NCBI RefSeq assembly: GCF_964213995.1
Contig: NC_135825.1
Coordinates: 31,186,001 to 31,250,000, forward strand
Direction of reading: 5' to 3'
DNA from: Mustelus asterias
Taxonomy: Eukaryota
Length of the DNA: 64,000 bases
The position numbers were made by a program, and so were the translations under genes. Shown here one piece after another: positions 6,683 through 59,680 of the stretch. Positions within the stretch are counted from its first letter, which is position 1. Each line of letters opens with the position of its first letter. Under the pieces are notes generated by a model. It made no database searches and was not told the origin of the DNA. It saw only the letters and a program-made list of their open reading frames with translations.

Positions 6683-6885
6683 AAAAGCAAATTATTGAAG
6701 ATATTGGAATCTGAAACCAAAAGAGAAAATGCTGGAAAATCTCAGCAGGTCTGGCAGCATCTGTAAGGAAAGAAAAGAGTTTCGAGTCCACATTATCATT
6801 TATCTGGACTCAAAATGTCAGCTCTTTTCTCTCCTTACAGATGCTGCAGGACCTGCTGAGATTTTCCAGCATTTTCTCTTTTGGA
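6683..6885. mobile_element. Fold-back mini-element made of PLE family-2 ends
   Basis: aaaagagaaaatgctggaaaatctcagcagg...cctgctgagattttccagcattttctctttt inverted arms, the same termini as 4883-6392. Confidence 0.75.
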
Positions 6886-7961: not shown

Positions 7962-8459
7962 ACTGCTGGTTAGCCTGCTGTAGTGCTGGTAAAAGTACGT
8001 AGAGCCTACATGGTGCACACTTTGTCCAGCTTATGCTGAATTTAGCAGTCGAATCCCACCACTGGTTTTGGGCTCCTGATTACCAGGATACTCATTTTGT
8101 ACCCACTCAAAATGGGTACGACAGTATTTAACTACCTTCCTGTTCCTGTCACTCCATCCTTGATGATTATCGCAACACAATTAGAAACCTGACACACAAT
8201 AGCACATACAAATGATTCTTGGTTTTTGTTGCATCACAACTTCTTGCTTCAGAATCAATAGATTTATTTTGGGAAGAAGTTACTCATGTTAAAATAGATA
8301 AAGAAAGATCCCTACATAGATCAAAGACGAAGAAAGAAATTGCATTTGTGTAGCAGCTTTTCTGATCTTGGCACACCCCAAAACAGTTTAGAAGCAATTA
8401 GGTACTTTTGAAGTGTAGTCACTGCGGTAATGCAGGAGGGGTGACAACCGACATGTGCA

Positions 8460-10735
8460 CAGCAAAGGGCTCGCAAACAGCAAGGGACCTGCAAACAGCA
8501 ATGGACCCGCAAGCAGCAAGGGACCCGCAAGCAGCAAGGGACCCGCAAACAGCAAGGGATCCGCAAACAGCAAGGGACCCGCAAACAGCAATGGACCCGC
8601 AAACAGCAATGGACCCGCAAGCAGCAAGGGACCCGCAAACAGCAAGGGATCCGCAAACAGCAATGGACCCGCAAACAGCAATGGACCCGCAAACAGCAAT
8701 GGACCCGCAAGCAGCAAGGGACCCGCAAACAGCAATGGACCCGCAAGCAGCAAGGGACCCGCAAACAGCAATGGACTCGCAAGCAGCAAGGGACCTGCAA
8801 ACAGCAATGGACCCGCAAGCAGCAAGGGACCTGCAAGCAGCAAGGGACCCGCAAACAGCAATGGACCCGCAAGCAGCAAGGGACCCGCAAACAGCAATGG
8901 ACCCGCAAGTAGCAAGGGACCCGCAAGTAGCAAGGGACCTGCAAGCAGCAAGGGACCTGCAAGCAGCAAGGGACCTGCAAACAGCAATGGACCCGCAAGC
9001 AGCAAGGGACCTGCAAGCAGCAAGGGACCCGCAAACAGCAATGGACCCGCAAGCAGCAAGGGACCCGCAAGTAGCAAGGGACCTGCAAGCAGCAAGGGAC
9101 CCGCAAGCAGCAAGGGACCTGCAAGCAGCAAGGGACCCACAAGCAGCAATGGACCCGCAAGTAGCAAGGGACCTGCAAGCAGCAAGGGACCCGCAAGTAG
9201 CAAGGGACCTGCAAGCAGCAATGGACCCGCAAGCAGCAAGGGACCCACAAGCAGCAATGGACCCGCAAGTAGCAAGGGACCTGCAAGCAGCAATGGACCC
9301 GCAAGTAGCAAGGGACCTGCAAGCAGCAAAGGGCTCGCAAACAGCAAGGGACCTGCAAACAGCAATGGACCCGCAAGCAGCAAGGGACCCGCAAGCAGCA
9401 AGGGACCCGCAAACAGCAAGGGATCCGCAAACAGCAAGGGACCCGCAAACAGCAATGGACCCGCAAACAGCAATGGACCCGCAAGCAGCAAGGGACCCGC
9501 AAACAGCAAGGGATCCGCAAACAGCAATGGACCCGCAAACAGCAATGGACCCGCAAACAGCAATGGACCCGCAAGCAGCAAGGGACCCGCAAACAGCAAT
9601 GGACCCGCAAGCAGCAAGGGACCCGCAAACAGCAATGGACTCGCAAGCAGCAAGGGACCTGCAAACAGCAATGGACCCGCAAGCAGCAAGGGACCTGCAA
9701 GCAGCAAGGGACCCGCAAACAGCAATGGACCCGCAAGCAGCAAGGGACCCGCAAACAGCAATGGACCCGCAAGTAGCAAGGGACCCGCAAGTAGCAAGGG
9801 ACCTGCAAGCAGCAAGGGACCTGCAAGCAGCAAGGGACCTGCAAACAGCAATGGACCCGCAAGCAGCAAGGGACCTGCAAGCAGCAAGGGACCCGCAAAC
9901 AGCAATGGACCCGCAAGCAGCAAGGGACCCGCAAGTAGCAAGGGACCTGCAAGCAGCAAGGGACCCGCAAGCAGCAAGGGACCTGCAAGCAGCAAGGGAC
10001 CCACAAGCAGCAATGGACCCGCAAGTAGCAAGGGACCTGCAAGCAGCAAGGGACCCGCAAGTAGCAAGGGACCTGCAAGCAGCAAGGGACCCGCAAGCAG
10101 CAAGGGACCCACAAGCAGCAATGGACCCGCAAGTAGCAAGGGACCTGCAAGCAGCAATGGACCCGCAAGTAGCAAGGGACCTGCAAGCAGCAAGGGACCC
10201 GCAAGTAGCAAGGGACCTGCAAGCAGCAAGGGACCTGCAAACAGCAAGGGACCCGCAAGCAGCAAGGGACCTGCAAGCAGCAAGGGACCCGCAAGTAGCA
10301 AGGTACCTGCAAGCAGCAAGGGACCCGCAAGCAGCAAGGGACCTGCAAGCAGCAAGGGACCTGCAAGCAGCAAGGGACCCACAAGTAGCAAGGGACCCGC
10401 AAGGAGCAAGGGACCTGCAAGCAGCAAGGGACCTGCAAGCAGCAAGGGACCCACAAGTAGCAAGGGACCCGCAAGCAGCAAGGGACCCGCAAGTAGCAAG
10501 GGACCTGCAAGCAGCAAGGGACCTGCAAGCAGCAAGGGACCTGCAAGCAGCAAGGGACCCGCAAGCAGCAAGGGACCCGCAAGCAGCAAGGGACCCGCAA
10601 ACAGCAATGGACCTGCAAACAGCAAGGGACCCGCAAACAGCAAGAGGGACCCGCAAGCAGCAAGGGATCTGCAAACAGCAAGGGACCTGCAAGCAGCAAG
10701 GGACCCGCAAGCAGCAAGGGACCCGCAAGCAGCAA
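8460..10735. repeat. 18-bp minisatellite (cagcaa[g/t]ggacc[c/t]gcaa[a/g]), about 126 units, with an 864-bp higher-order duplication
   Basis: Directly visible. The rare variant agcaaagggctcgc occurs at 8461 and 9325, and the variant order that follows is repeated. Confidence 0.97.
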
Positions 10736-10892
10736 GTTGATTATGACAGATAATTTATTTTAGTGAAGTTGGTGGAGGAATAAATTTGCCAGGACGCTCA
10801 GAAGAATTCCCCTGTTCTTCTCCTAATTAGTGCCATGGGATCATTTACATCCATCTGAGAGGGCTGCTGGGACCTTGGATTAACATCGGAAA

Positions 10893-18221: not shown

Positions 18222-20348
18222 AATGGAGACCCATTTCACGACTGAATGTGGATTATAAAATTCTGGCCAAGGTCATCGCCAACCGGGTCAAGTCTGCTCT
18301 GGGGTCAGTGATCCATCCTGATCAAACCTGTGCTGTACCAGGCAGGAAGATCTCTGATAGCCTCGTGCTACTCAGGGATACGATCGCCTACGTGCAGGAC
18401 AGGCAGGTGGACACCTGCCTCATCAGTCTAGACCAGGAGAAGGCGTTTGACAGAATATCGCACAGCTACATGATGGATGTGCTCTCCAAAATGGGCTTTG
18501 GGGAGGGAATCTGCAATTGGATCCAACTGCTCTACACAGACATCAGTAGCGCAGTTTCAATCAATGGGTGGGAATCAGATATGTTTCAGATCAGGTCTGG
18601 AGTCAGGCAGGGCTGCCCTCTCTCCTCCGTCCTTTTTGTGTGTTGCATTGAACCCTTTGCCGAGGCCCTCAGAAGCGACCCAGGCATCAAAGGGGTTACA
18701 ATCCCAGGCAGCGGAGGGACGCAAGTCAAAGCCTCCCTCTACATGGATGACGTGGCTGTCTTCTGCTCGGACCCCTCATCTGTTCGCAGGCTCCTTCAAG
18801 TCTGTGAGCAGTTCGAGCTGGCCTCGGGGGCCAAAGTCAACCAGGGTAAGAGTGAGGCCATGTTCTTTGGGAACTGGCCTGACACATCCTTTGTCCCCTT
18901 CACCATTAGGGCAGACTACCTCAAGGTGCTGGGGTTATGGTTCGGAGCGGCAGGGGCATGCGCCAAAAACTGGGAGGAGCGCATCGCCAAAGCCAGACAA
19001 AAATTGGGATTGTGGGAGCAACGCTCCCTCTCCATCACTGGGAAAAACCTTGTGATCCGATGCGAGGTACTGTCCATGTTGTTGTACGTGGCGCAGGTGT
19101 GGCCTCTCCCCAAGTCCTGCGCAGCAGCAGTGACCCGGGCCATCTTCAAATTTATCTGGAGATCAAAGGTGGATCGTGTCCGGAGGGAGGCGATGCACAA
19201 ATCTCCAGAGAATGGAGGGAAAAACGTTCCCAACGCCGCCCTCATCCTGATGGCCACCTTTGTGTGCGGCTGCATCAAGCTGTGTGTAGATCCTCGGTAC
19301 ACTAACAACAAGTGCCACTATTTTTTGAGGTTCTACCTGTCCCAAGTGTTGCAGAGGATGGGTCTGGCCACATTGCCGCAGGACGCTCCAAGTAGTTGGA
19401 CCGTACCGCAGCACCTGTCCTTCGTGGAGAAATTCTTCCGGAAACACACCTTTGACCACATGGCTATCAAGCAGTGGTCAGCACGTAATGTCCTTGAGGC
19501 CCTGAGAGAAAAGGAGACGGCAGATCCTGTCGGATGGTTCCCTGAGCGGACTGTCAATGTCATTTGGCAGAATGCCTCATCACCAGAACTCACAAACAAG
19601 CACCAAGACCTGGCTTGGCTGGTGGTGAGAAGGGCACTCCCCGTCAGATCCTTCATGCATGCCTGAGGGCTCAACCTCACCGCACGCTGCCCTCGAAGCG
19701 GCTGCGGGGCTGATGAGACGGTCGCACACCTCCTTGTGGAATGTGCTTTTGCAAAGAAGGTCTGGAGTGAGATGCAGTGGTATTTGTTGCGGTTCGTCCC
19801 GGGCAGCTCGGTGACGCAGGACTCTGTGCTCTACGGGCTGTTTCTGGGGACGCACACCGAGACAAATATCAACTGCTGCTGGAGGGTCATCAACTCGGTG
19901 AAGGACGCGCTTTGGTCCGCCCGAAACTTGCTGATCTCCCAGCTGAAAGAATTGTCCTCGACCGAGTGTTGCAGACTGGCACATTCCAAGGTCCAGGACT
20001 ACGTGCTCAGGGACGCGCTCAAGCTTGGGGCAGCCGCCGCCAAGGCACAATGGGGAAAGGCCACCGTGTAAAGCGTCTCAACCGAGGCAGACCGAGGGCC
20101 GGGTAACTGCAGAATACCCTCGGCCTGCGTAACTGTGTGCCAACCTGAAAAATAACAGCACACAGTAAACTCTGACGTATGTATATAGTTTTAAGTAATG
20201 AAATGTAATGTTTTGTAAATAAGCACTGTATTGTACTGTAAAAATGATTCTTTTTTTTGCACTGTTTATAACTTTGGATCTGTCGTTTTGCAATGTCTTA
20301 TTTGAGAGGTTTTTTTTTAATAAAGTATATTTTTGAAATAAAAAAAAA
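18222..20348 (+). mobile_element. 5'-truncated Tx1-clade (L1-group) LINE ORF2
   Basis: WRPISRLNVDYKILAKVIANR, SLDQEKAFDRI, GVRQGCPLS, YMDD; C-terminal CPRSGCGADETVAHLLVEC zinc knuckle; single internal TGA at 19664; aataaa plus poly(A); short TSD aatgg. Confidence 0.93.
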
Positions 20349-20409
20349 TGGCCACTAATGGTTCAATCATTAAAATCAGTTCTGCACAAGGGACCAAGAT
20401 TGGAGTTTA

Positions 20410-55240: not shown

Positions 55241-55342
55241 ATGAGTGACACAGGTGCAAAGCCCAGCCAGCCTTTAGCAGCAAAGCAGGAGAAGGATGTC
55301 ACGCCAAAGAGAGGACGCGGCAGACCCAGGAAGCAACCCCAA
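55241..55342 (+). CDS. HMGA1: HMGA1 first coding exon (MSDTGAKPSQPLAAKQEKDVTPKRGRGRPRKQPQ, AT-hook 1)
   Basis: Polypyrimidine tract with acceptor ttttgcag ending at 55229, ATG at 55241, donor gtatga at 55343. The 34 aa are collinear with human HMGA1 MSESSSKSSQPLASKQEKDGTEKRGRGRPRKQPP; the SQPLAxKQEKD motif indicates HMGA1 rather than HMGA2. Confidence 0.93.
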
Positions 55343-56401
55343 GTATGAGATGTATCATTTACATTTTAGTGAAATCGCATACTTTCTCTCCCCCACCAAC
55401 AGTTCGGCCAGACAAGTCTGCACCAGCAGTAACTTTACTGTTTTTAAAAAAAAAGTTAACTATCGATATGCATTTTTTAAAAACCGCATTTTTCTCTCTT
55501 ACCGACCCACGTTTTTGGATTTGAAATGCAAGTTTTTTTTCCTCGTCTGCAGTCGTCCTGTTGGTCCCCCGCAGTCTATTTTGGTGTCACAAGATTACAA
55601 AAATGCATGAGGCCGCCTTTTGAATAATGGATCAATTTTACAACTGCTCCGGATTGCGGAGCACCATCTGGCTGGGGCTGTGAATAAGCCGCTGGAACAT
55701 TTCTCCCCTTGTTGTGTTTTTGTGTTGTTGTAAATTTCCCAGAGAGGTGTGTGTGTGTTTTGTTGAGGTTTTTTTTAAGGGGACAGCCAGGTCGTGTTGC
55801 CCTCAGGTTGTTTCACGGCGACCGGAGTCCCGAGTCTTCCCTGGGAATCTCCTTCTTTGTTACAATGTTGCTTTCAGCACCAGCCGCAACATGAGACCTT
55901 TAAACCATTGTGTGAACCGGTAGTCACAACCCCAACCCCTGCCCCCATTGGCCGGCCCGCCTGTCAATCAACTGGCAAGCCTGTCCAATGAGAGGCGACG
56001 CTTGGCCTCCCCGGTGACATCAGCATGTTGCTAATGACTGCAACCCAAACAGGTCCTCAGCTGTTTTAAAGTTTATTTATTAGTGTGACAAGCAGGCTTA
56101 CGTTAGCACCGTAATGTGAAAATCCCCCAGTTGCCACACTCCGATGCCTGCGCGGGTACAACTGAGGGAAAGTTTTAGCCTGGCCAGTGCTCCTAACCAG
56201 CACGTCTTTCGGACTGGGAGGAAACCGGAGCACCTGGAGAAAACCCACCCAGACACTGGGAGAATGTGCAGATTCTGCACAGTCTGACGCAAGCTGGGAA
56301 TCGAATGCGGGTTCTTGGTGCTGTGAGGCAGCAGTGCTAACCACTGTGCTAACCGCCTGTGTTGGTTGTCATTGTGGCCACAAGCATGGCAAGGGGGTCT
56401 T

Positions 56402-56935
56402 AGTTGGCCTCTTGGCTAAGATCATGGTGGTTAGTACTGCTGCCTCACAGTGCCAGGGACCCGGATCCAATTCCAGCTTTGGGTGACTGTCTGTGTGGAG
56501 TTTTCACATTCTCCCCGTGTCTGCATGGGTTTCCTCCACGTGCTCCGGTTTTCTCCCACGCTCCAAAGATGTGCGGGTTAGGTTGATTGGCCATGCTAAA
56601 TTATCCCTTAGTGTCAGGGGATTAGCAGGGTAAATATGTGGGGTTACAGGAATAGGACTTGGGTGGGATTGTTGTCGGTGCCGCCTCGCTGGGCTGAATG
56701 GCCTCCTTCTGCACTGTAGGGATTTTATGATCCTATGATCAAGCATCAGATCAAGCCCAAGATGGGGTGCAATGCCGCATCTTGTCAGCTTGGATCTTAT
56801 TTGCCTCTCTATTGAACTGGAATCAATTGGATTTTGAATTTGGTTTTTGGAGCAAGCAAGGAATGGATTTGGGTTTACCCAGTGCACTCTGAGCATTGGC
56901 TTTATAACTTTAAGGATGGAGTAGAAAATTCAAAA
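56402..56935 (+). mobile_element. U2-snRNA-derived interspersed element, copy 1, interrupted by HE1 (56425-56736)
   Basis: ggcctcttggctaagatca|ag matches U2 nt 11-31; tggtttttggagca matches the Sm-site region. The HE1 insert has TSD gatca. Confidence 0.75.
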
Positions 56936-57034
56936 ATACATTCTTAATTGACCTCTTGACCCCCCCCATCCCACCAACTGATTAAAACCTCATCTCTAAA
57001 TTTTGACCTCATGAAATAATCTCCCTTTTTTCAG

Positions 57035-57705
57035 TTCATAGGAATCCCAGAACATTTACAGCAAAAAAAAAAGGCCATCATGTCGACACTGGCTGAATTA
57101 AAAAAATAAATGTATTCCTTTCTCTAAGTTACAAAGCCAGTGCTCAGAGTGGTCAGGGGCATGCCCCTAATTTATCTCCTCGCTTGCTCCGAAAACCAAT
57201 TCAAATTCAAAGTGAATCCAATTAATGGTCCCTACAAATGACACATACTAGATCCAAGGTGACAAGAACAGGCATTATACCTGATCTCGGGCTTTGTTCT
57301 ACACTTGATCTTAGACAAAAGGCTGAAAACTGGCTTTAAAAAAAAAGAGCCACCCAGCCCACTTCACAGCATTTGGTTCATAGTCCTTGCAGGTTACAGT
57401 ATTTAAGTGATTTTTTTTTTTACCTTACCTACCACCCTTTCAAACAGTGGGTTCCATACCTCTTACCACCCTCTATGCCCACCAGTCACTGACCTTTCCA
57501 CTAAGGTAAATAGACACTTGCATTGCACTTTATCCAGATCCCGGACAATTTTGTACATCTCATTCAAATCTCCCCTCAGCTTCATCTGTTCCAAGAAGAA
57601 TAACCCCAGCCTACCCAATTTTTCCTCATAGCTGCAATTTTCCAGACCTGGCAACATCCTCATAAATCTCCTCTGTACCCTCTCTATTGCAATTACATCT
57701 TTTCT
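57035..57705 (-). mobile_element. CR1 3' fragment hosting U2-derived copy 2
   Basis: RMLPGLENCSYEEKLGRLGLFFLEQMKLRGDL. Confidence 0.8.
57095..57328 (-). mobile_element. U2-snRNA-derived interspersed element, copy 2
   Basis: The - strand tttcagccttttgtctaagatcaagtgtag matches U2 nt ~7-36. 7-bp TSD actggct at 57088-57094 and 57329-57335. Confidence 0.8.
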
Positions 57706-58523
57706 AATTTTAACAGGAAAGTGGGATTTTAAATAAATCTTCTATTAATGGGTATGAATCGTGGCTTTCATGCATAGATAGTTTCTCAATCAGCGATGTA
57801 TCTTGGTGCATTGATTGTTTCAAAATGGGGGTAGGTGACAATGGTGAGGTCCCAACTTGATGAATTTTGCGAATTCTTAGATCAACCTATTGAGAAGGTG
57901 GTCGGTCTAAATATTGGCTGCCAGAGTGTATTCGCATAGTAATCTGGTTATTTGTCTGCCGTTGTGAAAACCTTTGCAATATATTGCACCTGTGTGCTTT
58001 TGTTAAATAGTGCATTCAGCTGTATTAGAGGAAATTTTATAAAAAGGTCCTGTACAGCGCCAAGGACCTGGGTTCGATTCCTGGCTTGGGTCGCTGTCTG
58101 TGCAGAGTTTGCATGTTCGTCTTGTGTCTGCGTGGGTTTCCTACGAGTGCTCCGGTTTCCTCCCACAGTCCAAAGATGTGCTGGTTAGGTGCATTGGCCA
58201 TGCTAAAATTCTCCCTCAGTGTACCCGAACAGATGCTGGAGTGTGGCGACTAGAGGTTTTTTACAGTAACTTCATTGCAGTATTAATGTAAACCTACTTG
58301 TGATACTAATAAATAAGCTTGTATTGGGATGGTTTCAGGCAGATTAATTTCTACAGTAGCCAGTTTTGAAATGTGTGTTTCTGGAGTGGGTTTATTTATG
58401 GTGTGGTAAACAGAGTTACCTAGCGCATTAAATTTTAGTGTGTTTTTCTCATTTTATTTATAGAGATAATTTGTTTGTAGAAAGAGTTTGTTAGAGAATA
58501 CAATCTGTAGAAGTACTTAATAT

Positions 58524-58875
58524 TGTAAGTCCTTTTGGCGGGGCGGGGGGGGGGGTTGATGGTCTCTTTTAAGAATAAGATTGCTTTAGGACCTGATCAC
58601 AGGTTTTGAAAAAAAGAGCAACTGGCTTCCAGTAAATGGCCATGTGACCAAGTTGGCTGGGAGATAAAAAAAATAGGCAAAAAGGTTCATCATGCTTTTA
58701 ATACATTTAACATTATTGACTTTTAAAACAGAATGTAGGTGTTAGGATTCATGCTCTTTGATTTTGGTGTCATAAAATTCTTTTTGATTTAAAGCATGAA
58801 CTTTGCAGCTTCATTCTTTCTGGGGTGTCGGATTCTTAAAAATGAAACATGTTATTGGTCTTTAGTGAGGTGACA
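58524..58875 (+). mobile_element. Possible solo LTR
   Basis: tgtaag...ggtgaca termini; imperfect flanks atat/ataa. Confidence 0.3.
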
Positions 58876-59142
58876 ATAATATCTCCAACTATATGCACAT
58901 TTTCAGATCTAGCAGAATGTTTTTAACTTTTATCATATGCCCATTAATTTTCCATGTTTCAGTACTACCAACATGTTAGCAGATTTATGATTCTGCTTAT
59001 ATATATTCAGAAAGCCTTCTTGTTTGATTGAAATGTTTATAGGGCAACAGCAGAAATAGTAGGGATTTTTTATCATTCAAAAATGTAAATATTAAGAGCC
59101 TCATTTTGTTGCATCAAAATGAATCGCAACTGGCTGAAGCTG

Positions 59143-59411
59143 TCACTGCTGCCTCACAGTGCCAGGGACTCAGGTTCACTTGGGTGACTGTGTGGAGTTT
59201 GCACATTCTCCCCGTGTCAGCGTGGGTTTCCTCTGGGTGCCCTGGTTTCCTCCCACAGTCGAAAGATGTGTGGGTTAGGTTGATTGGCCATGTTAAATTG
59301 ACCCTTAGTGTCAGGGGAATTAGCAGGGTAAATACTTGTGGTTATGGGGATAGGGCCTGGGTGAGATTGATGTTGGTGCAGGCCTCCTTCTGCACTGTAG
59401 GGATTCTATGA
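59143..59411 (+). mobile_element. HE1 SINE
   Basis: Head remnant, V-domain and tail. Confidence 0.85.
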
Positions 59412-59596
59412 CTGTCATGTGCTGATAACAGAGCAATCCTGCGACAAAGCATAATCGTGGATGAACCAGATAAACCTATTCTATTTCCCCATGCTAGTTT
59501 GGTCCAATGAGCAAACATTATAAGTATCTACATGTAGCTAGTGGTTTGTATAGCAGAGCTGTGCCATTAATCTTTTTATTCTCTTCCATTTAATAG

Positions 59597-59680
59597 GAAC
59601 CAACTGGAGCTCCTACTCCAAAACGACCACGGGGAAGACCAAAAGGAAGCAAAAACAAAGTTTCTGCTAAATCTGGAAGA
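59597..59680 (+). CDS. HMGA1: HMGA1 second coding exon (EPTGAPTPKRPRGRPKGSKNKVSAKSGR, AT-hook 2)
   Basis: Acceptor ttccatttaatag and donor gtaagt. The exon is 84 nt, phase 0, and continues exon 1. PTPKRPRGRPKGSKNK is the invariant HMGA core. It is too short for the ORF track. Confidence 0.93.

Follow-up and report, generated by a model that had tools for sequence, protein, structure and literature searches.

A dispersed, probably SINEU-like repeat family built from rearranged U2 snRNA in Mustelus asterias

A stretch of 64,000 nucleotides of the Mustelus asterias genome (hereafter the window) carries two copies of a repeat that occurs in four organisms as thousands of dispersed copies with one master structure and fixed ends. 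We consider it probable that these copies form a dispersed, non-autonomous, SINEU-like retroposon family of about 230 bp that is wholly, or almost wholly, U2 snRNA sequence. By alignment, the master is a U2 with two tandem triplications, one of U2 nucleotides 23-34 and one of the Sm-site region. Family copies begin at the U2 5' end and terminate in A/T-rich sequence at roughly the end of U2, and one insertion flanked by a target site duplication (TSD), copy 2, lies within an older LINE.

Setting and anatomy of the two copies

Coordinates and motifs of both copies were recovered as the sequence-only reading had given them (Table 1). Both lie inside intron 55343-59596 of an AT-hook gene, which we take to be HMGA1-like. 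The earlier placement in an HMGA1 intron thus holds for the intron of an AT-hook gene; the AT_hook match of exon 55241-55342 (E 0.013) is below the cut-off. Elsewhere in this intron, a GC-rich stretch (55920-56040) with several CCAAT-like words adjoins a GT-repeat and CpG-rich sequence and is possibly promoter-like.

Table 1. Features of the two copies and their surroundings in the window
Feature	Position	Strand	Basis
Copy 2, full element, 234 bp	57328-57095	-	Between two AGCCAGT direct repeats
Copy 2, U2 head	57328-57301	-	U2 alignment
Copy 2, units 2 and 3	57300-57277	-	U2 alignment
Copy 2, remainder: U2 35-100, Sm-region repeats, stem-loop III region, T-rich end	Sm-region repeats ~57225-57190	-	U2 alignment
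Upstream TSD of copy 2, 7 bp	57329-57335	-	AGCCAGT; T run and AA precede
Downstream TSD of copy 2, 7 bp	57088-57094	-	AGCCAGT
Host LINE fragment upstream of copy 2	57336-57700	-	63-76% to five other window repeats
Host LINE 3' tail, resuming past copy 2	57030-57087	-	Tail motif at 12 other window sites vs 1.9 expected
Copy 1, 5' part: U2 head (U2 ~7-29)	56402-56424	+	U2 alignment
tRNA-SINE-like repeat inside copy 1	56425-56741	+	Many 69-97% matches elsewhere in the window
Copy 1, body	56733-~56930	+	Alignment to copy 2 and U2; contig depth edge
Copy 1 body, three 12-nt units of U2 23-34	56735-56770	+	U2 alignment
Copy 1 body, U2 35-~85, private ~9-nt deletion		+	U2 alignment
Copy 1 body, triplicated Sm-site region, then stem-loop III region	Sm-site region ~56815-56850	+	U2 alignment
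Copy 1, 3' end	near 56923-56937	+	Depth edge and loose contig ends
AT-hook gene, exons 55241-55342 and from 59597	55241-59680	+	Translation and GT/AG ends
5'-truncated L1-group LINE	18224-20350	+	RVT_1 and zf-RVT, E 3e-46 to L1 ORF2p, AATAAA and A tail

Copy 2 lies within a LINE that is presumably CR1-like. Its description as an insertion into a CR1 with a 7-bp TSD is borne out for the TSD, which falls to 6/7 in three other organisms where the upstream repeat differs at 57331, and for the LINE host. At 80% likeness, the host LINE shows the depth of single-copy sequence as far as 57500, and its upstream fragment fills the position that an snRNA promoter of copy 2 would need.

Copy 1 is split by a tRNA-SINE-like repeat flanked by a 9-bp direct repeat (56416-56424 and 56733-56741) that is 8/9 identical. 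The insert reported earlier is therefore present, and it is presumably an HE1. Junction inspection revealed no recognisable TSD around copy 1. A SINE-like repeat lies upstream of this copy, from 56344 leftwards. Neither copy looks like a functional U2 snRNA gene, in that both miss the Rfam gathering score and have repeat sequence upstream.

The two copies are 71-72% alike (72% over 204 columns, E 2e-20), and neither BLAST nor nhmmer found a third in the window. They form an inverted pair about 170 bp apart, one sense and one antisense to the AT-hook gene, and at 72% identity might pair weakly in the pre-mRNA. Assuming 1-3 x 10^4 copies in 3-5 Gb, random insertion would bring two copies this close with a chance of 0.4-2%; this closeness counts against the reading as a dispersed retroposon.

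U2 origin and a shared rearranged master

The U2 references were three vertebrate-type genes (L024, L045 and L049; Rfam 173-184 bits), chosen by eye from 34 stretches in bacterial MAGs after 18 sources had been scanned. These stretches (L024-L057) represent host contamination with eukaryotic U2 genes or gene fragments, some of which are arrayed in tandem. The copies match vertebrate U2 across U2 6-36, 24-106 and 91-160. The head of copy 2 agrees with U2 6-36 at 28/31 positions and that of copy 1 (56406-56424) with U2 11-29 at 18/19, a score reached by 0/1000 shuffles. As the sequence-only reading had held, the similarity continues past the first 30 nt: stripped of its head, copy 2 beats 1000/1000 dinucleotide shuffles with each of the three genes (U2 24-100, 24-106 and 24-160), and an nhmmer profile of these genes gives E values of 3.2e-07 for copy 2 and 0.013 for copy 1. 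The third segment of copy 2 (U2 ~91-160) is equalled by 0, 12 and 69 of 1000 shuffles with the three references, and the copy 1 body by 0-23 of 1000. The proposed scan against Rfam U2 (RF00004) did find copy 2, at 24.1 bits (E 0.09), below the gathering score of 46, and listed no match for copy 1. The weak score of copy 2 arises because the rearrangement breaks the U2 model.

The tail is likely to derive from U2 as well, judging by an anchored alignment in which copy 2 is matched by 31, 37 and 474 of 2000 shuffles; copy 1 fails this test (1449-1898 of 2000), and local alignment of the last ~55 nt to U2 is non-significant (311-948 of 1000). The stem-loop III region still folds in copy 2 (4/200 shuffles as good), and copy 2 as a whole has a folding z of -2.7. 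For the stem-loop III region of copy 1, 18/200 shuffles are as good, and in the head and the stem II region folding does not surpass that of shuffled sequence (122 and 198 of 200).

Both copies carry U2 23-34 three times with a period of 12. The three units match U2 at 12, 5 and 9 of 12 positions in copy 2 and at 9, 8 and 8 in copy 1; by hand count, the family letters at 57298, 57296 and 57295 raise the middle unit of copy 2 to 8/12. Three repeats of the Sm-site region are also found in copy 1 and, among the loose contig ends listed, in the family consensus. Two internal duplications separated by spacers had been described from the letters. The repeats stand, whereas the spacers turn out to be decayed repeat units, making the duplications triplications. 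Both triplications fall in stretches that are mostly unpaired according to the Rfam structure line. As a candidate origin of the first repeat, the 20-bp TSD of Utopia was rejected: the TPRT model places that TSD downstream of nt 38, and the repeat covers nt 23-34.

The non-U2 substitutions said to be common to both copies are indeed shared far beyond chance. Over the 111 columns in which the three U2 genes agree (poorly aligned columns beyond 170 being left out), the copies have the same non-U2 letter in 27 and different non-U2 letters in 3, where independent decay predicts 5.6-10.1 shared letters (P 8e-12 to 2e-6). At 19 of the 23 body sites tallied among those listed, the family letter is that of the other copy, with two gaps and two differences. 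The copies are therefore separate insertions from a master and not a local duplication, which upholds the earlier rejection of independent pseudogenes and of duplication in place.

The head is either younger than the body or has been kept closer to U2, because the two copies share no non-U2 letter in the 19 head positions common to both, and copy 2 matches U2 at 26/29 positions in the head as against 30-31/44 in the segment after it, a stretch in which 66-67/67 positions are the same in the three U2 genes. The master had a near-perfect U2 head on a body that was diverged by about 24%.

Copy number, dispersion and age

Organisms A, B, D and H each contributed one run (four of the 21 listed), and the Logan contigs of these four runs were mapped on 56730-57500 at 80% likeness. 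Contigs fitting this region number 8042, 6941, 6047 and 4916, so that the first condition named for abandoning the proposal, that only two copies exist, is refuted in all four runs; the second, that U2 similarity ends at 30 nt, did not hold either. Summed depth peaks over copy 1 at 216,578, 88,198, 34,738 and 11,953, compared with 25.8, 7.7, 6.8 and 2.0 over the single-copy spacer, which amounts to 8394, 11,410, 5079 and 5976 times the spacer. Peaks over copy 2 reach 549-1237 times. Depth over the copy 2 head is low, and contigs matching human DNA were filtered out of the mapping. As summed depth is a proxy and no copy number, and diverged copies escape mapping at 80%, it indicates a family of thousands of copies, of the order of 10^4. 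The depth does not come from true U2 genes because the majority letters at 57239, 57224, 57212 and 56799 are non-U2.

The ends of the family are well marked. Depth returns to baseline at 56938 and 57328, and 172, 144, 112 and 124 contigs have loose ends before 56733 in the four runs. The mapping listed 24 of 1558 loose ends, 40 of 107 variants and 15 of 152 joints. Among the loose ends listed, those on the 5' side show a T run and AAA followed by the U2 5' end, and most of those at both edges have a median length of 255 with an agreement of 0.42-0.52; the one listed behind 56923 reads a T run and then an A run (agreement 0.46). In records of 1.4-2.5 kb, the match is confined to ~140-195 nt, and the flanks are unrelated. 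The amplified family with a common rearranged-U2 master that had been proposed from the two copies is supported by these contigs and by the shared derived letters.

Structural variants occur within the family. A variant with a shorter head (at 56748) is found in 65-81 contigs per run and may instead reflect repeat units placed out of register in the alignment, and among the joints listed a 50-nt repeat-back variant (56798 to 56749) is found in 5 and 2 contigs. Variants common to several contigs hint at several masters. By the joints listed, other family members thus carry a further 50-54-nt internal tandem duplication (56749-56798), and a joint from 56928 to 56748 marks a head-to-tail dimer in at least one member.

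Organisms B, D and H carry both copies at the orthologous position, and one contig of organism D spans 56847-57500 with 59 other letters. No empty site of either copy was seen in the four organisms. Both insertions therefore predate the splits of the four organisms, and we infer that the window copies are dead, independent insertions. The family motif and the vertebrate U2 pattern each gave 0 matches in metagenome contigs and viral contigs.

Transcription, mobilisation and relation to known elements

The family may have formed in several steps. An old U2 retrocopy would have diverged by ~24% and gained both triplications, after which, as has been proposed for crocodilian SINEU, a template switch of the reverse transcriptase would have joined a fresh U2 1-36 piece to its 5' end. 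The young head fits this later addition. More than one source copy would have been active. Their transcription may have relied on Pol II and a promoter lying outside the element, whether the snRNA promoter of a master locus or promoters in flanking sequence. The RNA would then have been copied in trans at T/A-rich nicks by the reverse transcriptase of an L1/Tx1-group LINE.

The suggestion of Pol II and an outside promoter follows from features that argue against Pol III: neither copy has an A box, and the element contains T4 at U2 14-17 and T4-T5 at the Sm site. The same oligo-T argument is made for SINEU (PMC4494074). "SINE-like", as the sequence-only reading called the family, is thus apt for a dispersed, non-autonomous repeat and fails in the strict Pol III sense.

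An L1/Tx1-group LINE is probably the mobilising partner on circumstantial grounds, namely a weak flank consensus and its presence in the window. The single L1-group member in the window (18224-20350), presumably Tx1-like, has one in-frame stop. A comparison of 3' tails with local LINE ends had been suggested as a way to find the partner, and it identified none: eight comparisons with the local CR1-like, tRNA-SINE-like and L1-group repeats were non-significant (96-910 of 1000 shuffles), which also leaves the family outside the stringent type of SINE, with no tail homology to these three local repeats. The best comparison was with the L1-group LINE (96/1000), where both copies match the same 3' UTR spot near 20258. 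The lack of a shared tail with local LINEs is consistent with a LINE that can act on RNAs lacking tail homology, and the T run and AAA of the 5' flank resemble the L1 nick site, given as TTTT/AA in PMC2912911. Several observations stand against the retroposon reading: only one of the two copies has a TSD, which measures just 7 bp (6/7 in the three other organisms), no empty site was seen in any of the four organisms, and the end of copy 2 is a T run where SINEU have poly(A). Copy 1 ends A-rich.

SINEU, as described by Kojima 2015 (PMC4494074), come from crocodilians, and that account found none elsewhere. The family shares with them a U2-derived head, a dispersed high-copy structure common to its members and a short non-coding element (234 bp, under 500 bp). 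It most resembles SINEU-3, which is described as short, non-coding and mostly U2, with one rearranged structure in all copies, internal oligo-T and a promoter that is not known; the short U2 5' piece measures 32 bp there and 34-36 here. SINEU-3 has an internal deletion of ~50 bp, a ~40-bp non-U2 end, poly(A) and ~1,600 copies, 90% of them in Mariner-N4_AMi (PMC4494074). In contrast, the Mustelus family keeps nearly all of U2, adds two triplications, has an A/T-rich end and numbers at least several thousand copies, and the window copies lie in a presumably CR1-like LINE and in unique DNA. By the same description, all SINEU have poly(A), and their mobilisation is attributed to Tx1-Mar, with Mariner-N4_AMi preferred as a site (PMC4494074). 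As in SINEU-1 (~7,700 copies, PMC4494074) and SINEU-2, where fresh U1/U2 pieces are described as added 5' repeatedly along with partial internal duplications, a fresh piece heads the element; unlike the non-snRNA 3' half of SINEU-1 and the U1-U2 fusion of SINEU-2, head and body are both U2. Since its structure differs from SINEU-1, -2 and -3 as described, the family is probably SINEU-like with a separate origin.

The principal alternative is that the copies are mass retropseudogenes of one or a few rearranged U2 paralogues, germ-line expressed from their own snRNA promoter and 3' box, and were themselves never sources. We regard this as unlikely but worth weighing. It agrees with copies that span U2 from its 5' end to about its 3' end, as judged by the loose ends and the anchored tail of copy 2, with the absence of an internal promoter, with the folding stem-loop III region of copy 2 and with the Sm-type words retained in copy 1. 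Human U2 is described as having 1,708 pseudogene hits (PMC4476161), and Kojima 2020, as far as cited here, wants a transposition-competent copy proven before the term SINE is used. Like the family, the mammalian processed U2 pseudogenes described by Doucet et al. 2015 (PMC4476161) are LINE-mobilised snRNA copies with TSDs at TTTT/A-like sites. These are, however, independent copies of normal RNA, without a shared rearranged master, and 57/58 are 3'-truncated, unlike the family copies. The variants that hint at several masters also speak against retropseudogenes, as do the failed tail test of copy 1 and the near-perfect head on a 24%-diverged body, which favours later 5' addition over one evolving gene.

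We also speculate, with still less confidence, that the master was a selfish snRNA with an snRNA-type Pol II promoter, in which the triplications were selected because they multiply the single-stranded handles of U2. If so, the extra Sm-type sites would route the RNA through cytoplasmic Sm assembly, stabilise it and bring it to a LINE reverse transcriptase, a U2 counterpart of the use of SRP9/14 by Alu.

It is improbable that a functional U2 gene harboured the master at its Keno/Utopia target site, providing both the promoter and the fresh U2 1-36 head. This would account for promoter and young head together, and the perfect head does stop at U2 nt 34-36, two to four bases before the site at nt 38/39; Keno and Utopia are likewise described as leaving U2 5' fragments that end near nt 38 (Kojima and Jurka 2015, PMC4640811). 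Yet these elements are, by that description, autonomous, several kb long and fixed at nt 38/39 within U2 genes, with downstream flanks that begin at nt 39, whereas the body here restarts at nt ~19-23, so that the link to Keno and Utopia raised in the earlier reading is not supported. Moreover, no U2 39+ follows the tail among the loose ends listed, the head-body join falls within the period-12 triplication, and the copies are dispersed and not in U2 genes.

Very unlikely, too, is a true Pol III SINE in which the second 12-nt unit made a B box and, with the U2 5' end, an internal promoter. Copy 1 has a match to the B-box word GWTCRANNC at 56749, as would copy 2 if its letters at 57298, 57296 and 57295 were those of the family. 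Of the seven fixed letters in this word, six come with U2 itself, so that the match has a chance of 1 in 4, and this one word accompanies a missing A box and T4-T5 runs that would stop Pol III. There is practically no case for a pair of ordinary U2 pseudogenes, for an inverted duplication in place or for a DNA-level repeat such as a satellite or MITE passenger: the copies are adjacent and inverted in a window with no third, and one tandem joint is among those listed, but thousands of contigs carry non-U2 family letters with long unrelated flanks at both edges, private letters revert to those of the other copy at the 19 of 23 listed sites, and copy 2 breaks a LINE with a TSD.

As a SINEU-like retroposon, the family would represent a second origin of such elements among vertebrates, distinct in design (almost all of U2 is kept, with expansion in place of deletion), and would show that snRNAs repeatedly become mobile elements. 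The main texts searched, including PMC1513397, PMC5381603, PMC5499810, PMC8143547, PMC7245038, 10.1101/2025.02.19.638963 and 10.1101/2025.02.02.635956, describe no snRNA-derived family from cartilaginous fish, and PMC12054243 names such retroposons, still in 2025, for crocodilians only in the text covered. NSRE1 and NSRE2 of the nurse shark are, by description, specific to that species and denser. There is some chance, albeit a minor one, that the family may already be in Repbase, Dfam or supplementary repeat libraries. PMC4494074 and PMC5786205 treat the transcription of snRNA-derived retroposons as an open question. A source locus surviving in these slowly evolving genomes would answer how they are transcribed and mobilised, and thousands of copies are enough to find source loci, promoter and partner LINE. 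The family will also inflate or confuse U2 and snRNA annotation in these genomes, and its old, shared insertions are possible phylogenetic markers.

Three ~1.8-kb IMG/VR contigs (L010, L015 and L021) contain U2 nt ~10-40 followed by unrelated sequence, with L015 reaching the Rfam gathering score; the break near nt 40 recalls U2-targeting elements. Two further repeats in the window lie away from the copies. A long inverted repeat at 6729-6872 has the look of a MITE and matches miRNA hairpin models on both strands below gathering, and a ~2.3-kb tandem repeat with an 18-bp period (8400-10750) is open in several frames.
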